Positions 306 through 63,266 of a stretch of 64,000 nt of DNA are shown here, piece after piece. Source of the DNA: Pararhodonellum marinum. Its GTDB lineage: Bacteria; Bacteroidota; Bacteroidia; Cytophagales; Cyclobacteriaceae. The stretch lies in the NCBI RefSeq assembly GCF_015354735.1, contig NZ_JACEFJ010000019.1, forward strand, positions 17,093 through 81,092, written 5' to 3'. Each line of letters starts with the position of its first letter. Position 1 is the stretch's first letter. Under the pieces are notes generated by a model, which had not been told where the DNA came from, searched no databases, and saw only the letters and a list, made by a program, of their open reading frames with translations. Made by a program: the position numbers and the translations under genes.

Positions 306-471
306 TAAATTTACTTTAAATCCTCTTTGGATATTAGATAAGCGCATTGGGTTGACCAATTTTGTTTCAAAATTTAAATTTTAAAGCATTATTAATCAAT
401 AAAATAATATACCTAAAATAAAGTAAAACTTCAATAATCAAGTTAAAAACCATTTTAATAAAACCACATAT

Positions 472-2526
472 ATGAAAACTATTCAAAAATTGCTTTTGGC
501 GAGCCTTTGGGTGATTTTGTTCGCCGCATGTGACACAGATGATACATTGCCTACGCTTACCAATAAATTACAAGCCAACGCCGGAACTGACAGAGAGGTG
601 CCTTTGGGTATCGCTGTCGAACTCAACGGAACTGCTTCCAAAGATGGGAACAACAAGCCCTTTTCGTATGAGTGGAGCTTCAAATCCAAGCCTGAAAACA
701 GCACTGCCATCCTGGAAGGTGCGAGCCATGAGAAATCGACTTTTACCCCAGATCAGCTAGGTGATTATACCATTGAACTGAAAATCGCCAATGAGACAGG
801 AGAAAGCAAAGCCTCGGTCAAAATAACCGCGGTCAACAGCAATGCTGGGGTCACCATAATCTTGGACCAAGACATCACACAGGATCGCATTCTTTTTGAT
901 ATCCATGATGATCCTACAGTACCTGACTACATTGTTTCGGTCAATCTCGCAGTGAAAGCAAAGCTGACCGTTCAACCCGGAGTGGTGATTGCATTTGAAG
1001 AAAAGAAAGGGATGTTGGTGCAGCAGGGTGGCATACTGATAGCCAAAGGAGAAATGGATAAGAAAATCCAATTTATTGGAAAAGCTGCTGCCAAAGGATA
1101 TTGGGCGGGGATTGTTATCCAAACCAATTCGCCTTTCAATGAATTTCAGCATGTAGAAATCAAGGATGCGGGAAGTCAGGCAGTTTATCCACTTTTGCAA
1201 GCCACTGCTTTGGGATTGGCCGGCAATTCCTATTTGAGGATCGCCCAATCCACCATTCTTCAGTCTTTGGGACATGGGTTTTGGGTCAGCCCCACCGCTT
1301 CAATGGATTTTAGCCAAAATGCATTCAGACAAAATGATGGGGTCAACATGGTATTGCCTGTGAATGAGGTCCATAAGCTGGATGCTGAGACGGTATGGGA
1401 AGCCCATTCCCAGGATGCAAACTATGTTGAAGTCACTGGTCCTGAACTCATAATTCAAGGAAATATCACCTGGCCTAAACTTAGCAATCAGACACGTTAC
1501 AGGATCAGTGAAAACCTGGTCATCAAATCCAACCTAACACTGGAAATGGGTGCTAAAATAGGGGTGGCGCCTGATAGATTTATCAGAGTCCTTGGTTCCC
1601 TTCATGCCAAAGGCAGTCAATTGGACCAAATCAGCATGGAGGTATGGCCTGCAGGAAATCACAAATGGGGTGGATTGGTTTTTCACTCCGCAAGTGATCT
1701 CAACCGCTTGGAGTGGGTAGAAATCCGTCATGCAGGTAACAACCAAAAAGGCTATGGCATGGACCAAAGTGCCGCAATAGGTGTGGATGGAGCTCAAGGA
1801 GGAAAGCTAAACTTGGTGAATACAAAGATCCTAGGAAGCAACGCTTATGGGCTATATGTAGAACAGGGAGCAGTATTGGGTGATTTTGAGAAATTATCAG
1901 TGGAAGCCATTAAGGGTAAAGTTATGGCCTTACCGGCTGCAATGGTTTACAGGGTGAAAGACCTGATCCAAGTAGCTGTCCAAAATCAGAATCCTGCTGT
2001 GGAAGTTGTGGGATTTTCTCTCAATGAGACAGAAGAGGCAGTTTGGGGGCCATTACCAGGTGGCATGACCTATTACCTTCCCAATCAACTTGATGTAACT
2101 TCTGGATTGAAATTACTGCCCGGAGTAAAACTTGAATTTAACCAACACGCCATGTTGGCAATCCTTCATGACGGCTACCTGATAGCCAAAGGAACAAGCC
2201 AAAAGAATATCGAATTCAAAGGAAGTGTGGATCAAAAGGGCTATTGGAGAGGCATAATTTTTAGATCCAACAGCAACCATAATGTCATGGAGCATACCTT
2301 GGTTTCTGGAGCTGGAGGTCTTGAGCTGCCTTGGACAGGTGGAAGAAAAGCAAGTATCGGTGTATTTCCCGGAGGCACTGGTCTACAGCTCAAGAACAGC
2401 AAAATCCTAAAAAGCGGCGGATGGGGCATTTTGGTTGATACGAGTTTTGGAGCCATCATCAATCCGGATGTAGAAAGTAGCAATCAGTTTGAGGACGTGA
2501 GCAGTGGCAACATTATTCGCTTGTAA
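472..2526 (+). CDS. Secreted lipoprotein with PKD/Ig-like domain and parallel beta-helix repeats (adhesin/polysaccharide-binding-like)
   Basis: Lipoprotein signal MKTIQKLLLASLWVILFAAC. An NGTASKDGNNKPFSYEWSF segment looks PKD-like. There are repeated G-rich beta-helix-like segments (ILIAKGEMDKKIQFIGK ... YLIAKGTSQKNIEFKGS). A strong terminator follows. Confidence 0.55.
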   Translation: MKTIQKLLLASLWVILFAACDTDDTLPTLTNKLQANAGTDREVPLGIAVELNGTASKDGNNKPFSYEWSFKSKPENSTAILEGASHEKSTFTPDQLGDYTIELKIANETGESKASVKITAVNSNAGVTIILDQDITQDRILFDIHDDPTVPDYIVSVNLAVKAKLTVQPGVVIAFEEKKGMLVQQGGILIAKGEMDKKIQFIGKAAAKGYWAGIVIQTNSPFNEFQHVEIKDAGSQAVYPLLQATALGLAGNSYLRIAQSTILQSLGHGFWVSPTASMDFSQNAFRQNDGVNMVLPVNEVHKLDAETVWEAHSQDANYVEVTGPELIIQGNITWPKLSNQTRYRISENLVIKSNLTLEMGAKIGVAPDRFIRVLGSLHAKGSQLDQISMEVWPAGNHKWGGLVFHSASDLNRLEWVEIRHAGNNQKGYGMDQSAAIGVDGAQGGKLNLVNTKILGSNAYGLYVEQGAVLGDFEKLSVEAIKGKVMALPAAMVYRVKDLIQVAVQNQNPAVEVVGFSLNETEEAVWGPLPGGMTYYLPNQLDVTSGLKLLPGVKLEFNQHAMLAILHDGYLIAKGTSQKNIEFKGSVDQKGYWRGIIFRSNSNHNVMEHTLVSGAGGLELPWTGGRKASIGVFPGGTGLQLKNSKILKSGGWGILVDTSFGAIINPDVESSNQFEDVSSGNIIRL

Positions 2527-44610: not shown

Positions 44611-46638
44611 CTACATGATCCTCCTGTTTTCTACTCCCATCCCTTTGGCTAAATTCAGCATGTTGGTCAAAAAGCCCTTGTCCTGGTCAGAGGCTTTCAT
44701 TTGAATCTGAGCAATCAAAGCGGCAATGGATAGGTTTTTCAAATCCTCAGTCGTTATCCCATACTTATTGGCAATGTTGCGGATTTTTTCCACCAGATCA
44801 TTTGGGGTGTCGTCTTTGCCGTTTTCACCCAAAAAGGCATCTTTGAACTGGGCAACCGTATGGGAGTGTTCCACCATTTTGTCGATTCCTTTTCCGGTTG
44901 ATATTTGCTTGATCAGGTTGTCGAAGAAGGTGTTGTCTCCTCCCACAATATCAATTTTCGCGGTTTTAAATGCTTCTGCAAGCACTTTGGCCTGTGCATC
45001 TGCGATGTCCTTTTGGATACTGATTTGCGCCAATTCCACATCCTTCTCTTTTTGAAGCTTTAGCCTGAATTCTTCGTGTTCCTTACCGGCATCATTCAGT
45101 TGTTTCATGGCTCCGGCTTTTTCATTGATGCCTTTGGCTTCTGCGATGGCTTTTTCTTGGATCACCTCAGCTTCTGCCAAACCTTCTTTACGTTTCGCTT
45201 CCGCTATCTTCTCAATGACTATGGCATCTACCATTCCCTGTCTTTCCAAGGCATCGGCCTTGGCATGCATCACCTGAGCCTCTGACATACCGAGCGTGGC
45301 TTCCTCCTTGGCTTTTGCTTCTGCGATGATTTTTCGGGCATCAGCCTCTTTGTCTGCAGCATCTTTTTTCGCATTGGCCTCAATGATGATTTTGGCAGCT
45401 TCATGTTTGGCTGATTTCTCTTTTGATTCAGCAGCTTTTACTTCTTCAATCAGGTTTTTCTCAGCTTCTTTGGAAGCAATAATCAATGCAACATCTTTTT
45501 GCCTGTTCGCTTCTTTAAGGGCTTCAACATCCTTGATTTTCTCTTGCTCTTCTACCACGGTTTTTTCCATGGCTACCCTTTCTCTTATGGCATCCTGAAT
45601 GTTTTTCTTTTCGATTTCAACTGCTTTTTCTTTTTCGATCTGAGCCAAAGCTACCACTCTTTCTCTTTCAGTTGCTTCGATATCCCGGTCTTTTTTGACC
45701 CTTTCGGTTTCTACTGCCTCGGCCCGTTCTTTGTTCTTTGCCGCAATGATGACTTGCCGCTGTTTGTTTTCTTCCTGGATTTCCAGTTGTTCCTCAGTCC
45801 TGATTCGGACTTCTTCTGACTTGAGTTTTTCCTGAACCGTCACCTTATCGATTTCAGCTTGTTCACGTGCTTTTATGGTCTCAATTTCACGTCTCTGGGA
45901 CTCTTCTTTTTCTTTCAGCTGTTTTTCAAGTTCCAGAATGGCTTCTCTTGCTTCCACATCTTGCTTTTTGATGATTTTTTCCTCGTCTCTGCGGATGAGA
46001 TTTGCTTTGATGTTTTGCGCTGCGGTCAGTTCTGTGATTTTCTTGATACCTTCTGCATCCAGGATATTATCCGAATCCAGGTTCTCGATTTTGGTTTGTT
46101 CCAGGTAATCAATGGCACAATCATCCAGAACATAGCCGTTGAGATCGGTTCCGATGATATCGATGATTTCATCGCGAAATTCCCTTCTTGCTTCATAGAG
46201 TTCTATGAACTCGAATTTTTTACCCACACTTTTCAGTGCTTCAGAAAATTTGGCTTCAAACAGGCTTTCCAAGGTTTCATGGTCAGAAGCCCTGGCACAG
46301 CCTATGGTCTGGGCTACATTGATGATGTCCTGCACGGATTTGTTGACCCTTACAAAAAAGGCCACTTTGATGTCAGCCCTCATGTTGTCTTTACAGATCA
46401 ACCCATCTTTGGTCATCCTTGAAATCTCCAGTTTTTTGACGGAAATATCCATGATTTCTTCTTTATGGAGTATGGGAATTACCATTCCGGCATTGAAGAA
46501 TATCCTTACACCACCCTGACCCGTTCGCACCAACACCCGGCCCTGGCTTACTTTTTTGTACATTGAAATGAGCCACATGAATAGCCCCAATAGCACGATT
46601 ATACTGACTCCTGCTATCACATAAAAAGATTCCATCAT
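44611..46638 (-). CDS. Flotillin family (SPFH/band-7) protein, YqiK-like
   Basis: N-terminal TM, then the SPFH region (YKKVSQGRVLVRTGQGG...). The ~400-aa C-terminal half is a long EA/KE-rich coiled coil, typical of bacterial flotillins. Confidence 0.8.
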   Translation of the reverse strand: MMESFYVIAGVSIIVLLGLFMWLISMYKKVSQGRVLVRTGQGGVRIFFNAGMVIPILHKEEIMDISVKKLEISRMTKDGLICKDNMRADIKVAFFVRVNKSVQDIINVAQTIGCARASDHETLESLFEAKFSEALKSVGKKFEFIELYEARREFRDEIIDIIGTDLNGYVLDDCAIDYLEQTKIENLDSDNILDAEGIKKITELTAAQNIKANLIRRDEEKIIKKQDVEAREAILELEKQLKEKEESQRREIETIKAREQAEIDKVTVQEKLKSEEVRIRTEEQLEIQEENKQRQVIIAAKNKERAEAVETERVKKDRDIEATERERVVALAQIEKEKAVEIEKKNIQDAIRERVAMEKTVVEEQEKIKDVEALKEANRQKDVALIIASKEAEKNLIEEVKAAESKEKSAKHEAAKIIIEANAKKDAADKEADARKIIAEAKAKEEATLGMSEAQVMHAKADALERQGMVDAIVIEKIAEAKRKEGLAEAEVIQEKAIAEAKGINEKAGAMKQLNDAGKEHEEFRLKLQKEKDVELAQISIQKDIADAQAKVLAEAFKTAKIDIVGGDNTFFDNLIKQISTGKGIDKMVEHSHTVAQFKDAFLGENGKDDTPNDLVEKIRNIANKYGITTEDLKNLSIAALIAQIQMKASDQDKGFLTNMLNLAKGMGVENRRIM

Positions 46639-60054: not shown

Positions 60055-60552
60055 TTAACCGTTCCCCTCATCCGCACTCGGGCCATAGCTCCCCGGAATA
60101 GGCACTTCCAACAATCGCAGGTAAACACCCAGCTGGGCCCTGTGATGAATGATTTGGCTGATCGACATCCTGAGTACTTCCCATTTGGTTTCAGTGCTGT
60201 AAACCACTTCGCCTTCACTCAAAGTCCACATTTCCTCCAATTTGTCTAGTTCGGCATTTTCTAAATCCCTTCTTCCGGATTCTAAGACCTCTTCAAAGTG
60301 TTCCAAAAGACTTTTCGTATCCGTATACTCAGTGGGTTGGTAAGGATTTTCTGAAAAATCCAACCCATCGGTATGCAAAGTCATCCCTATCCATCCAGGG
60401 AGTTCGATGATGTGGTTGGCCAACCTTTTGATGGTCATGCTTTTGGGATGGGGCTGCCAGTCGAATTTGCCCTCAGGGATCCTTTCAATCATTTTTCTGG
60501 TGGTGATGGCTTCTTTTTCCAATTCTTTCTGAAAAGCTTCTATGATGTTCAT
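60055..60552 (-). CDS. DinB family protein (DinB/YfiT-like four-helix bundle)
   Basis: H-containing helices (ANHIIELPGW ... IIHHRAQLGVYLR). Start taken at MNIIEAF. Confidence 0.6.
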   Translation of the reverse strand: MNIIEAFQKELEKEAITTRKMIERIPEGKFDWQPHPKSMTIKRLANHIIELPGWIGMTLHTDGLDFSENPYQPTEYTDTKSLLEHFEEVLESGRRDLENAELDKLEEMWTLSEGEVVYSTETKWEVLRMSISQIIHHRAQLGVYLRLLEVPIPGSYGPSADEGNG

Positions 60553-60606
60553 GGCTTTGTTTGTTTTGTTTGGTACAAAGAAAAAAGCCATGATGACAAC
60601 CCTATG

Positions 60607-61569
60607 TCAGGAGGGAATGGGATTTTTTATTTTTTCCAACATGATCTCCAACAGCTCCTGCAATCTTTCTCTGAGACTTACTGGTTCCAACACCTCCCAT
60701 TGATCCCCCATCATCAAAAGCCAACGGGCAAATCCTTCCAAATGGCTGCTCATAAAAGTCATGTGATAGTATTCCTCATACTTTTCCTGCAAGACGAAAC
60801 CTTGGTTGTACCGCTGGTTTTTGATGTATTTGTAGGAGGATTTTGGTACCTTGATCACCACTTTCTCCAGATTCTCCTCCTGTTTCACTTGATCCAAATA
60901 AGCCTGCAGGGAGGGGTGCCGGTCTGAATAGGTTTCTTCCAAAGTGTGGATATCAGAGATTCTGTCCACCCTGAAGTTCCGATAGGCTTTCCTGAGTTTG
61001 CACCAGGCGATCAGGTACCATTGTTCAAAAGCGAAATAGACCCCGATAGGCTCAATTTTCCTTTCGGTCAACTCTTCTTTATCAAAAGAAATGTAGGTCA
61101 TGTTCAAGATTTTCTTTTCCGAAAGGGCATTTAGGATGGTCTGAATACGGTTTTTCTTTCCCCAATCTTTTTCGGAATTATGCGGTCGGAAGGCAGCTAT
61201 CTGATCATTGAGGTTTTCGATCAGGTTTTTCTCGTCCAACCGCAACACAGACTTGATTTTGATCATGGCAGATTGCAGGTGTGCAGCACCTTCTTTGTCC
61301 ATGATTTTTTCCAGGATCTTCTCCGCCATCAGGAAGGCCATGGCTTCCTCTTTGGTAAACATCACAGGAGGCAATCGATAACCTTCCACCAACGAATAAC
61401 CAAAACCCGCCTCTCCGATAATGGGAATGCCAGCCTCTCCCAAGGCCCTCATGTCCCGATACACCGTTCTCAGACTGATATCAAAGCGATCTGCAATTTC
61501 CTGCGCCTTAAGCAATCTTTTGCTCTGCAACTGCGTCAAAATGGCGGTCAGCCGGTCAATTCTATTCAT
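60607..61569 (-). CDS. WYL domain-containing transcriptional regulator (YafY family: HTH + WYL + WCX)
   Basis: The N-terminal MNRIDRLTAILTQLQSKRLLKAQEIADRFDISLRTVYRDMRAL is an HTH_11-type motif. The central YISFDKEELTERKIEPIGVYFAFEQWYLIAWC is the WYL motif region. Confidence 0.75.
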   Translation of the reverse strand: MNRIDRLTAILTQLQSKRLLKAQEIADRFDISLRTVYRDMRALGEAGIPIIGEAGFGYSLVEGYRLPPVMFTKEEAMAFLMAEKILEKIMDKEGAAHLQSAMIKIKSVLRLDEKNLIENLNDQIAAFRPHNSEKDWGKKNRIQTILNALSEKKILNMTYISFDKEELTERKIEPIGVYFAFEQWYLIAWCKLRKAYRNFRVDRISDIHTLEETYSDRHPSLQAYLDQVKQEENLEKVVIKVPKSSYKYIKNQRYNQGFVLQEKYEEYYHMTFMSSHLEGFARWLLMMGDQWEVLEPVSLRERLQELLEIMLEKIKNPIPS

Positions 61570-61739
61570 GGGACTGCTGGATAGTGGACAAGTATATAAA
61601 ATTGTAAAACTTATGGGTAAGGTCAAAATATTATGCTGTCAACCCACCTGTATATTTTGTAAAGAATGCTTGTTGTCGGGGTTGTCCAGTTGTCAGGTTA
61701 CCGTAAAACAGCATAACAGAAAACTGGATATCAGAGGAA

Positions 61740-62500
61740 AAGCTTGAGGTAGGATAATTAGAATAACGGAAAAACAGGAAACGGAATATCAGAAGGACAG
61801 TGAAGGGGTTGAAGCTGAAAGCTCAAAGGTGAAAGCTGAAAGCAGAGAAACAGGCTATCGGAAAAACAGAAAAAAAGAGGTTCAGAGGAAAGCTCGAAGT
61901 AGATAATCAGAATAACAGAAAACTGAATAACAGAAAACAGGATATCAGAGGAGAAGCTCAAACCAGGGAAAACAAATCAGTAGGAAGAAGGAAGTGCTGT
62001 AGGCACGAACGATGTAATAGCCCGGTAATTTATTGCCGGGATTTGGAAGCAAATAGTAAAGAAAAGTGCCGTAGGTACGACAGATTTTCTACGAACAAGA
62101 GGATGGAAAGAGAGGAAAAGCTTGAAGTAGGATAATTAGAATAACGGAAAAACAGGAAACGGATCATCAGAAGAACAGTGAAGGGGTTGAAGCTGAAAGC
62201 TCAAAGCAGAGAAACAGGCTATCGGAAAAACAGAAAAAAAGAGGTTCAGAGGAAAAGCTTAAACTAGGGAAAACAAATCAGTAGGAAGAAGGAAGTGCTG
62301 TAGGCACGAACGATGTAATAGCCCGGTAATTTATTGCCGGGATTTGGAAGCAAATTAGTAAAGAAAAGTGCCGTAGGTACGACAGATTTTCTACGAACAA
62401 GAAGATGGAAAGAGAGGAAAAGCTTGAAGTAGGATAATTAGGATAACGGAAAAACAGGATAACAGAGGATAAGCTCAAAGGTGAAAGCTGAAAGTAGTTT
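61740..62500. repeat. Purine-rich complex tandem repeat, ~310-bp unit x ~2.4, with internal AACAGAAAACAGGA-type sub-repeats
   Basis: The unit from ~61744 recurs at ~62112 and partially at ~62412 with >90% identity. It includes a hairpin-containing module GCCCGGTAATTTATTGCCGGG. Confidence 0.8.
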
Positions 62501-62774
62501 ATCAATTAGACCAAAAAACAGGGCAACAGAAAAAGCGCGAAGCTGAAGGACTTAAGCGGAGGTCCGAGGCAAAAAGCCAAGATACTCCGTAAATCGCAAC
62601 TCACAATTCATACCTCGTAAATCGTAAATCGTACCTCTCAAATCCCTTTTCTTTTTGGATGACAGGACGCAAAAGGCCATAGTTCGCTCTATCAAAAAAA
62701 ATCCCCCCTCCTGACATAGGGCTGTCACTGAGTAGTAGTTTCTTTGAGATATGTTACATCCAAAACCAGAAATC

Positions 62775-63266
62775 ATGAAAACAACAACCGAAATCAGCAC
62801 ATCCCCATTGATGACCTCCGACCAACTGTTGGCCCACTGGCAAGGGCATAGGCAATTGACCAGAAGGGTCATCGATGCTTTTCCGGAGAAAGATCTTTTT
62901 CATTACAGCATAGGCGGAATGCGGCCATTTGGTGCAATGGTCAATGAATTGTTGGCCATTGCCGTGCCTGGATTAAAAGGAATCGCCAATGGGCAATGGG
63001 AATCCTTGAATGAGGACATTGAGGTGGATGAAAACAAACCCAAATTACTTGGACTTTGGGATCAAACAACCTTAGACATCGATCATTGGTGGGCAAAACT
63101 TGATCCCAATGGCTGGCAGAATACAGTTTTGACCTTTGGTCAATACGAGGGAACAGTGCTGAACAGCATCCTTTATTTTATCGACAATGAAATCCACCAC
63201 CGGGGACAGGGATATGTTTATCTCAGAAGTCTGGGCATAGAACCACCTTATTTCTGGGAGCATTGA
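62775..63266 (+). CDS. DinB family protein (DinB_2 superfamily)
   Basis: W..H...T.R.I..FPE... at the N-terminus and a C-terminal HHRGQ region, as in DinB-family proteins. Start taken at MKTTTEI. Confidence 0.6.
   Translation: MKTTTEISTSPLMTSDQLLAHWQGHRQLTRRVIDAFPEKDLFHYSIGGMRPFGAMVNELLAIAVPGLKGIANGQWESLNEDIEVDENKPKLLGLWDQTTLDIDHWWAKLDPNGWQNTVLTFGQYEGTVLNSILYFIDNEIHHRGQGYVYLRSLGIEPPYFWEH

Follow-up and report, generated by a model that had tools for sequence, protein, structure and literature searches.

A purine-rich hairpin repeat array, probably of a REP/BIME-like kind, between the divergent WYL regulator and DinB genes of Pararhodonellum marinum

Introduction

In Pararhodonellum marinum, a gene for a WYL/YafY-type regulator (60607-61569, minus strand; HTH_11, WYL and WCX domains in Pfam) and a DinB-family gene assigned by Pfam (62751-63266, plus strand, with a second in-frame ATG at 62775) diverge from a gap of 1.2 kb, of which about 1 kb is extra non-coding DNA. 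All coordinates refer to the window, that is, the whole 64-kb stretch of DNA that was analysed. The regulator protein shows 100% identity to a protein of P. marinum, a member of the Cyclobacteriaceae. The gap contains a purine-rich tandem array, and the question raised by this locus is whether such an array controls the two genes, is transcribed as a structured RNA or is repetitive DNA of another origin. A first-pass annotation, made from the sequence alone, had proposed either an array of regulator-binding sites or a structured, strand-asymmetric RNA locus.

The array is a genuine feature of an ordinary kind. With a probability of roughly 75%, it is made up of REP/BIME-like repeats that were inserted into a divergent promoter region which is otherwise short, and not of regulator sites. 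As its hairpin module adjoins a small IS200-type transposase gene in other bacteria, the array is probably mobile, "junk-like" DNA rather than regulatory machinery. This result removes a tempting regulatory reading of a WYL/DNA-damage locus and shows where the real conserved site lies.

Results

A tandem array of purine-rich units

The array extends from 61700 to 62560 on the plus strand, as delimited by its purine content, by the repeat families D1-D4 and by unit alignment. A repeat search and a MAFFT alignment resolved it into 2.3 tandem copies that are 93-97% identical, and the coordinates given to the tandem purine-rich repeat in the first-pass annotation were reproduced to within about 10 bp. 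Unit 1 (61733-62110, plus strand, 378 bp) and unit 2 (62111-62412, plus strand, 302 bp) each consist of a purine-rich, lineage-specific spacer followed by a hairpin module, the spacer of unit 1 carrying two extra inserts, one of 14 bp made up of two AAGCTGA heptads and one of 63 bp that is an internal sub-repeat. Partial unit 3 (62413 to about 62500, plus strand) contains the start of the spacer only and is followed by a degenerate purine-rich tail that reaches about 62560. For this array, TRF reported only nested repeats of 7 and 15 bp, and missed the period of about 300 bp because of the indels between units.

Purines account for 72% of the plus strand over 61700-62560 and for 75% in the spacers. 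When the 64 kb was scored in segments of 200 nt, the array was the sole stretch with more than 68% purine (mean 50%, sd 6.6%). The only other strongly skewed stretch, at 45501-45950, has 28% purine on the plus strand and lies inside a 675-aa minus-strand ORF (44611-46638); it is therefore probably a low-complexity coding segment. The hairpin module quoted in the first-pass annotation was present exactly twice in the 64 kb, and the two motifs that were tested gave 4 and 2 matches versus 0.07 and 0.00 expected.

The region had been described as non-coding, and this description held. On the plus strand, no ORF of 40 aa or longer starts within the array. On the minus strand, the ORFs of 45-75 aa do not maintain their frame from one unit to the next, because the units differ by 14-bp and 1-bp indels; a protein-coding reading of the array was rejected on account of these frame-breaking indels. 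A CRISPR-like reading was also rejected, as whole units are repeated with their spacers included.

No match to the array was found by blastn in the plasmid and phage collections, and blastn of the purine-rich spacers against all the fetched loci found nothing. Homology of the spacers to the arrays of loci L082 and L010 was considered and rejected, the local alignments being about as good as those of composition-preserving shuffles (p about 0.09-0.47). A search of the spacers with filters off revealed no decayed or inverted modules.

Orthologous loci and a conserved inverted-repeat site

The same divergent DinB-WYL pair was found in three relatives, a Lunatimonas MAG, a metagenome contig and another MAG, and in all three the genes are separated by a gap of 150-200 bp. 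The module was not found in loci L004, L005, L007 and L001. As the gaps of the relatives are this short and lack the module, the P. marinum lineage carries about 1 kb of DNA that they do not have, the bulk of which is the array segment 61700-62560. The module is thus not conserved upstream of orthologous DinB genes in the way that a cis-regulatory leader or riboswitch would be.

An inverted-repeat site of 17 nt, TGACATAGGGCTGTCAC (62712-62728, plus strand), lies upstream of DinB and outside the repeat; it is identical in the window and in loci L004, L005 and L007, and its distance to the DinB start is the same in all four loci. A second copy with one mismatch is located on the minus strand at 60594-60609, just upstream of a second DinB-family gene, a paralogue of the first (60055-60591). 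When the window was searched with TGACATAGGGCTGTCA, allowing up to three mismatches, only the sites at 62712 and 60594 were returned, both outside the array, and the TGACATAGGGCTGTCAC site is absent from the repeat unit. TGACATAGGGCTGTCAC is likely to be the site of the WYL/YafY regulator, in which case both DinB paralogues would belong to one regulon. The array separates the WYL gene from the conserved site at 62712-62728 by more than 1.1 kb, a distance that may alter the autoregulation of the gene.

Short direct repeats of the CGTAAATCG type were observed in three copies at 62582-62644, between the array and the conserved site. An ACGTAA-rich sequence is present near the DinB start in locus L004 too.

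These comparisons bear on the proposal that the array is a set of binding sites, either for the WYL regulator encoded next to it or for some other DNA-binding protein by which DinB is controlled. The location of the array between two divergent genes is in line with that proposal, as is the abundance of AAGCT (14 occurrences versus 0.8 expected) and AACAG (16 versus 2.5), but the tandem duplication of the sequence inflates both counts. Moreover, the conserved site lies outside the repeat, as a single copy at each DinB promoter, and the gaps of 150-200 bp in the relatives lack the repeat. We therefore regard binding sites as a very unlikely explanation of the array, and a role connected with the WYL regulator or DinB, as suggested by the first-pass annotation, was not upheld by the three relatives or by the position of the conserved site.

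Structure and strand of the hairpin module

Each full unit ends with a module of about 95 nt that contains three hairpins. Module 1 (61990-62084, plus strand) comprises box A (61993-62007), an 8-bp hairpin designated P4 (62021-62040) and box B (62065-62079); in module 2 (62291-62386, plus strand) the same elements are found at 62294-62308, 62322-62341 and 62367-62381, respectively. Box A has the form AGUGCY-GNA-GGCACG and box B the form AGUGCC-GNA-GGUACG, the latter being followed by ACAG, so that the two boxes are similar hairpins placed 72 nt apart in direct orientation. P4 is preceded by UAG, a triplet that was fixed by the search pattern used to collect the family, and GUAG occurs in the box loops solely where the loop is GUA.

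Both window copies were recovered by R2, a covariance model trained on the copies of other genomes with the window copies left out, with 65.7 bits for module 1 (E=6e-14) and 64.3 bits for module 2 (E=1.4e-13), and no further R2 match was found in the 64 kb. With model R1, the scores were 74.2 and 72.3 bits, respectively.

When 27 modules were aligned, pairing was seen in 98.8% of the cells of the three local hairpins. Compensatory changes were detected at positions left free by the search pattern in five of the eight P4 pairs, and one pair of box B appears as CG in 14 modules, GC in 7 and GU in 6. Among 105 distinct model matches, 98.3% of the cells pair and 16 of the 18 pairs show compensatory changes, values for pairing and covariation that far exceed those of shuffled and slid controls. 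The conserved hairpin module pointed out in the first-pass annotation is thus real, and its hairpins covary. A long-range pairing between box A and box B, which appears in the RNAfold minimum-energy structure of the window copy (z=-4.65), was also considered; it fails in 14 of the 27 sequences, and the alignment supports the three local hairpins in its place.

Regarding the strand, the 105 sequences contain 36 G-U or U-G cells versus 12 A-C or C-A cells, and the loop of box A is GNA in 99 of them. In the window copy, G-T pairs are present in all three small stems, at positions where the minus strand would have A-C mismatches. The wobbles and the GNA loops therefore identify the plus strand of the window as the functional one, which is opposite to the orientation in Rfam. 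The fold z-score of the module is -4.65 on the plus strand and -2.6 on the minus strand. The earlier description of the locus as a structured, strand-asymmetric and non-coding repeat agrees with these data. In DNA, C-GNA-G triloops have an unusually high stability.

A repeat family related to Rfam RF01687

The Rfam model RF01687 (Acido-Lenti-1), the one lead obtained from Rfam, matched both window copies on the minus strand with 28.4 bits, a value that does not reach the gathering score of 37. The match nevertheless runs from end to end, with model positions 1-46 all aligned over the two hairpins and the conserved linker. In related loci (for example L016, L021 and L100), the model gave matches of 40-65 bits, and many copies of other genomes exceed the gathering score. 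RF01687 describes box A and the 8-bp hairpin only; it lacks the second box hairpin, which is conserved about 22 nt further downstream. We assign the window module to the Acido-Lenti-1 family as a member that is both divergent and extended.

The genome collection was searched with a pattern in the sense of the plus strand that comprised the positions common to the window and to the Rfam consensus, for which about 0.6 chance matches were estimated; as the pattern was drawn partly from the window sequence, membership in the family is not fully independent of the window. At least 118 blocks of 8 kb were matched. Among the matches listed, the taxa were Pirellulaceae and other Planctomycetota, Acidobacteriaceae, Korobacteraceae, Hydrogenedentota and many Bacteroidota, the latter including Algoriphagus, Aquiflexum, Dyadobacter, Gillisia, Brumimicrobium, Chitinophagaceae and Saprospiraceae. 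The second box hairpin was found in 37 of the 151 matches listed, usually about 20-30 nt past P4, as in the window. The covariance model yielded 245 matches in 832 kb. In Bacteroidota, 25 of 32 copies lie outside long ORFs, though such ORFs cover about 73% of those loci. In scans of metagenomes, a pattern specific to the window and Aquiflexum gave no matches and a subtype pattern gave one.

The family is present in many copies in other genomes, with dozens of blocks in one Pirellulaceae MAG and several loci in Algoriphagus formosus and in a Chitinophagaceae MAG. In P. marinum, two copies were found in 64 kb, both inside the WYL-DinB array. The modules are arranged as inverted doublets, as alternating clusters or as direct arrays; inverted doublets with 25-45 nt between the modules are common in other genomes, and direct arrays were also found in loci L040, L070, L010, L073, L082 and L132. 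Purine richness on the same strand is shared with the direct arrays of Algoriphagus aestuariicola and of a Planctomycetia MAG, and is not general in module flanks (mean 0.52 upstream and 0.51 downstream).

Several variants of these arrangements were observed. In the Pirellulaceae MAG JTS-AC248 (L009, L011, L013, L018, L019 and about 40 more blocks), a module variant is followed by a perfect 23-bp palindrome (ccggcttgccagcgatcgaccgc / gcggtcgatcgctggcaagccgg); at dozens of contig ends this variant is found 40-110 nt from the terminus, and so it seems to interrupt the assembly. An IMG/VR viral contig (L008, 11085-11190) carries four tandem 32-bp units, CTAGTGCCGAAGGCACGACTGACCTCTGGT, as a box-only array between two ORFs. 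In Algoriphagus aestuariicola (L010, 380-470 and 720-800), the array unit contains three copies of CTTCGACAGGCTCAGTGACCATA, which we take to be a short repeat widespread in bacterial intergenic regions.

The breadth of the family also weighs on the possibility that the tandem units are an artefact of the assembly, or form a plain satellite unrelated to mobile DNA. Repeat-rich regions are error-prone and the same family breaks assemblies in other genomes, both of which would speak for it. Against this, the units of the window differ by substitutions and by indels of 1, 14 and 63 bp and have clean junctions, and the module is independently conserved across phyla, which makes this explanation scarcely plausible.

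Association of the module with Y1 transposase genes

All ORFs of at least 120 aa from the 118 blocks listed were clustered. Among the matches listed, the sole ORF cluster common to several phyla encodes a protein of about 150 aa, present at eight loci and assigned to Y1_Tnp (Pfam PF01797) and IS200 (NCBIfam NF033573). These proteins are distantly similar to IS608 TnpA (E=3.5e-4) and are nearer to IS200 transposases than to canonical RAYTs. The motifs DH[VI]H, WQ and Y-I-x-N-Q-x-E-H-H are present in seven of the eight, the eighth (L051) being truncated.

Modules lie within about 200 bp of the Y1 gene in seven of the eight loci, often in inverted orientation. The order is module (+), Y1 gene, module (-) in L120 and (-)(+)(+), Y1 gene, (-)(+) in L100, and four modules of alternating orientation are present in L113. 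In the remaining locus, L082, there is only a weak 17.5-bit match beside the Y1 gene, the array being located about 1.8 kb downstream. In a reverse test, Y1 genes were picked by protein similarity alone (from Antarcticibacterium flavum, Spirosoma, Emticicia, Echinicola sediminis, Parabacteroides and Dyadobacter diqingensis), and modules flanked all six. With both approaches taken together, hairpin modules flank 13 of 14 Y1-carrying loci, L082 being the exception. Most Y1 homologues are on metagenome contigs of 1-2 kb, which is what would be expected of a gene enclosed by repeats. No paper linking RF01687 to Y1 transposases was found in the literature collection that was searched.

In Antarcticibacterium flavum (L129, 3523-5869), 16 modules in strict +/- alternation occupy 2.3 kb directly downstream of the Y1 gene, and in Dyadobacter diqingensis a module-flanked Y1 gene coexists with a dispersed module copy on another scaffold. 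The doublets of L129 have a period of about 310 bp, near the 302-bp unit length of the window. In a 2.2-kb contig of Echinicola sediminis (L132), the Y1 gene is apparently duplicated in tandem together with its modules (partial at 23-340, full at 1104-1568), the modules being directly oriented and spaced about 365 bp apart.

The modules of the window array are all in plus orientation, whereas the clusters adjacent to Y1 genes mostly alternate. No Y1 gene was found within the 64-kb window, and a P. marinum homologue was not among the best 120 of 7671 and of 2381 protein matches. The direct flanking of IS200-like Y1 genes by the module family in other genomes amounts essentially to what the first-pass annotation had itself named as a refutation of its proposal, namely that the unit belongs to a transposon terminal region.

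The association with transposase genes is also relevant to the RNA reading, according to which the plus strand of the array would be transcribed as a structured non-coding RNA, for instance a protein-sponge RNA or a long leader with repeated hairpins, in keeping with the view of the family as an sRNA in Rfam. The preference of the G-U wobbles for one strand, the stronger fold of the plus strand (z=-4.65 versus -2.6) and the sub-threshold match to RF01687 would fit such an RNA, and the covariation fits RNA as well as it does single-stranded DNA. Nevertheless, members of the family occur in either orientation, form inverted doublets and are found at the ends of contigs and beside transposase genes, the module is missing from the orthologous loci, and conservation does not extend to the spacers. 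The long-range fold that accounts for the strong z-score fails in 14 of the 27 sequences. In addition, no sigma-70-type promoter was found in a scan of the array and no Bacteroidetes-type promoter motif (TAnnTTTG) by regex, and the terminator-like matches within the array are weak and on the minus strand only, opposite to the strand that would be transcribed. A structured non-coding RNA encoded by the array is therefore improbable, if less so than the binding-site and artefact readings considered above.

Discussion

Relationship to known repeat systems

The closest known systems are the REP/BIME clusters and the REPIN-RAYT (REPtron) systems of Proteobacteria (PMC3116915, PMC3337134, PMC3479197). 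Like these, the family consists of short extragenic hairpin repeats that are numerous and occur alone, as inverted doublets or clustered together, and it flanks a small HUH/Y1 transposase gene; the REPtron enzyme is thought to act on single-stranded DNA. Unlike the REP sequence of 20-40 nt, the module is about 95 nt long and has three hairpins. The associated enzymes carry the Y---Q--HH signature (IS200-like) and not that of class 2 RAYTs, and the combination of a 5' GTAG guide with a class 2 RAYT, typical of REPtrons, is not found in the module family. Unlike REP clusters, the window array is direct and has long purine-rich spacers; these 75% purine spacers, which have no detectable homologues, are not explained by the REP model and speak against the REP reading.

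The Acido-Lenti-1 RNA motif was listed as a likely RNA of Acidobacteria and Lentisphaerae (PMC2864571, Table 1). The module shares with it (RF01687) box A, the 8-bp hairpin and the conserved linker over the full 46-position alignment. It departs from the model in that the wobbles and loops favour the opposite strand, in having a second box hairpin and in that the window copies score below the gathering value. Beyond that listing, the family reaches Bacteroidota, Planctomycetota and Hydrogenedentota and flanks Y1 genes.

With respect to the enzymes, the flanked genes of about 150 aa, with DH[VI]H, WQ and Y-I-x-N-Q-x-E-H-H, bear the signature of TnpA-Y1 subclass 1.2 of Quentin et al. (2018), which was described as low-copy and without the typical terminal secondary structures of IS200 (PMC6006769); unlike in that description, hairpin modules flank 13 of the 14 loci here. 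The TIRtrons (TIRYT) of Di Nocera et al. (2013) are Y1 genes flanked by inverted repeats that also form moderately abundant families, Acidobacteria included (PMC3733652). The module family resembles them in flanking Y1 genes and may or may not be identical with them. Box A and box B, as two similar direct hairpins, also recall the left-end and right-end hairpins of IS200/IS605 elements. Unlike such elements, the units of the window have no transposase gene, and inverted doublets, in place of direct ends, border the Y1 genes.

A possible origin of the array and identity of the family

A REP/BIME-like origin of the array could have involved the following steps. The plus strand of the module would be recognised as single-stranded DNA by a Y1 enzyme and copied in trans, as is thought for REPs and REPINs by RAYTs. 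In the lineage of Pararhodonellum marinum, a module would then have inserted between the promoters of WYL and DinB, and the composite unit of spacer and module would have been amplified 2.3-fold by local tandem duplication, as the 93-97% identity of the units suggests. An array formed in this way would have no dedicated role in the control of WYL or DinB.

We give an even chance to the broader proposal that Acido-Lenti-1 is not a small RNA but the single-stranded-DNA repeat partner of the Y---Q--HH, IS200-like subclass of Y1 transposases, in a REPtron-like system spread over at least four phyla; its functional strand would be opposite to that of the Rfam model, which would also miss the conserved second box hairpin. 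An orphan Rfam "sRNA" family would thereby be given a concrete identity and a partner enzyme, and the Y---Q--HH subclass would gain a candidate DNA substrate. The data suggest that the RF01687 model is wrong-stranded and incomplete. More speculatively, the purine-rich spacers of direct arrays could favour R-loops, by which the hairpin-bearing strand would be left single-stranded for the enzyme.

Module repeats of this kind fragment metagenome assemblies and yield spurious small ORFs with the peptide VPTALP, and ORFs of this type may enter databases as hypothetical proteins. Such opposite-strand spurious ORFs run through the module at 62278-62505 (-) of the window and at 403-711 (+) of locus L010, and the VPTALP that they have in common derives from box A.
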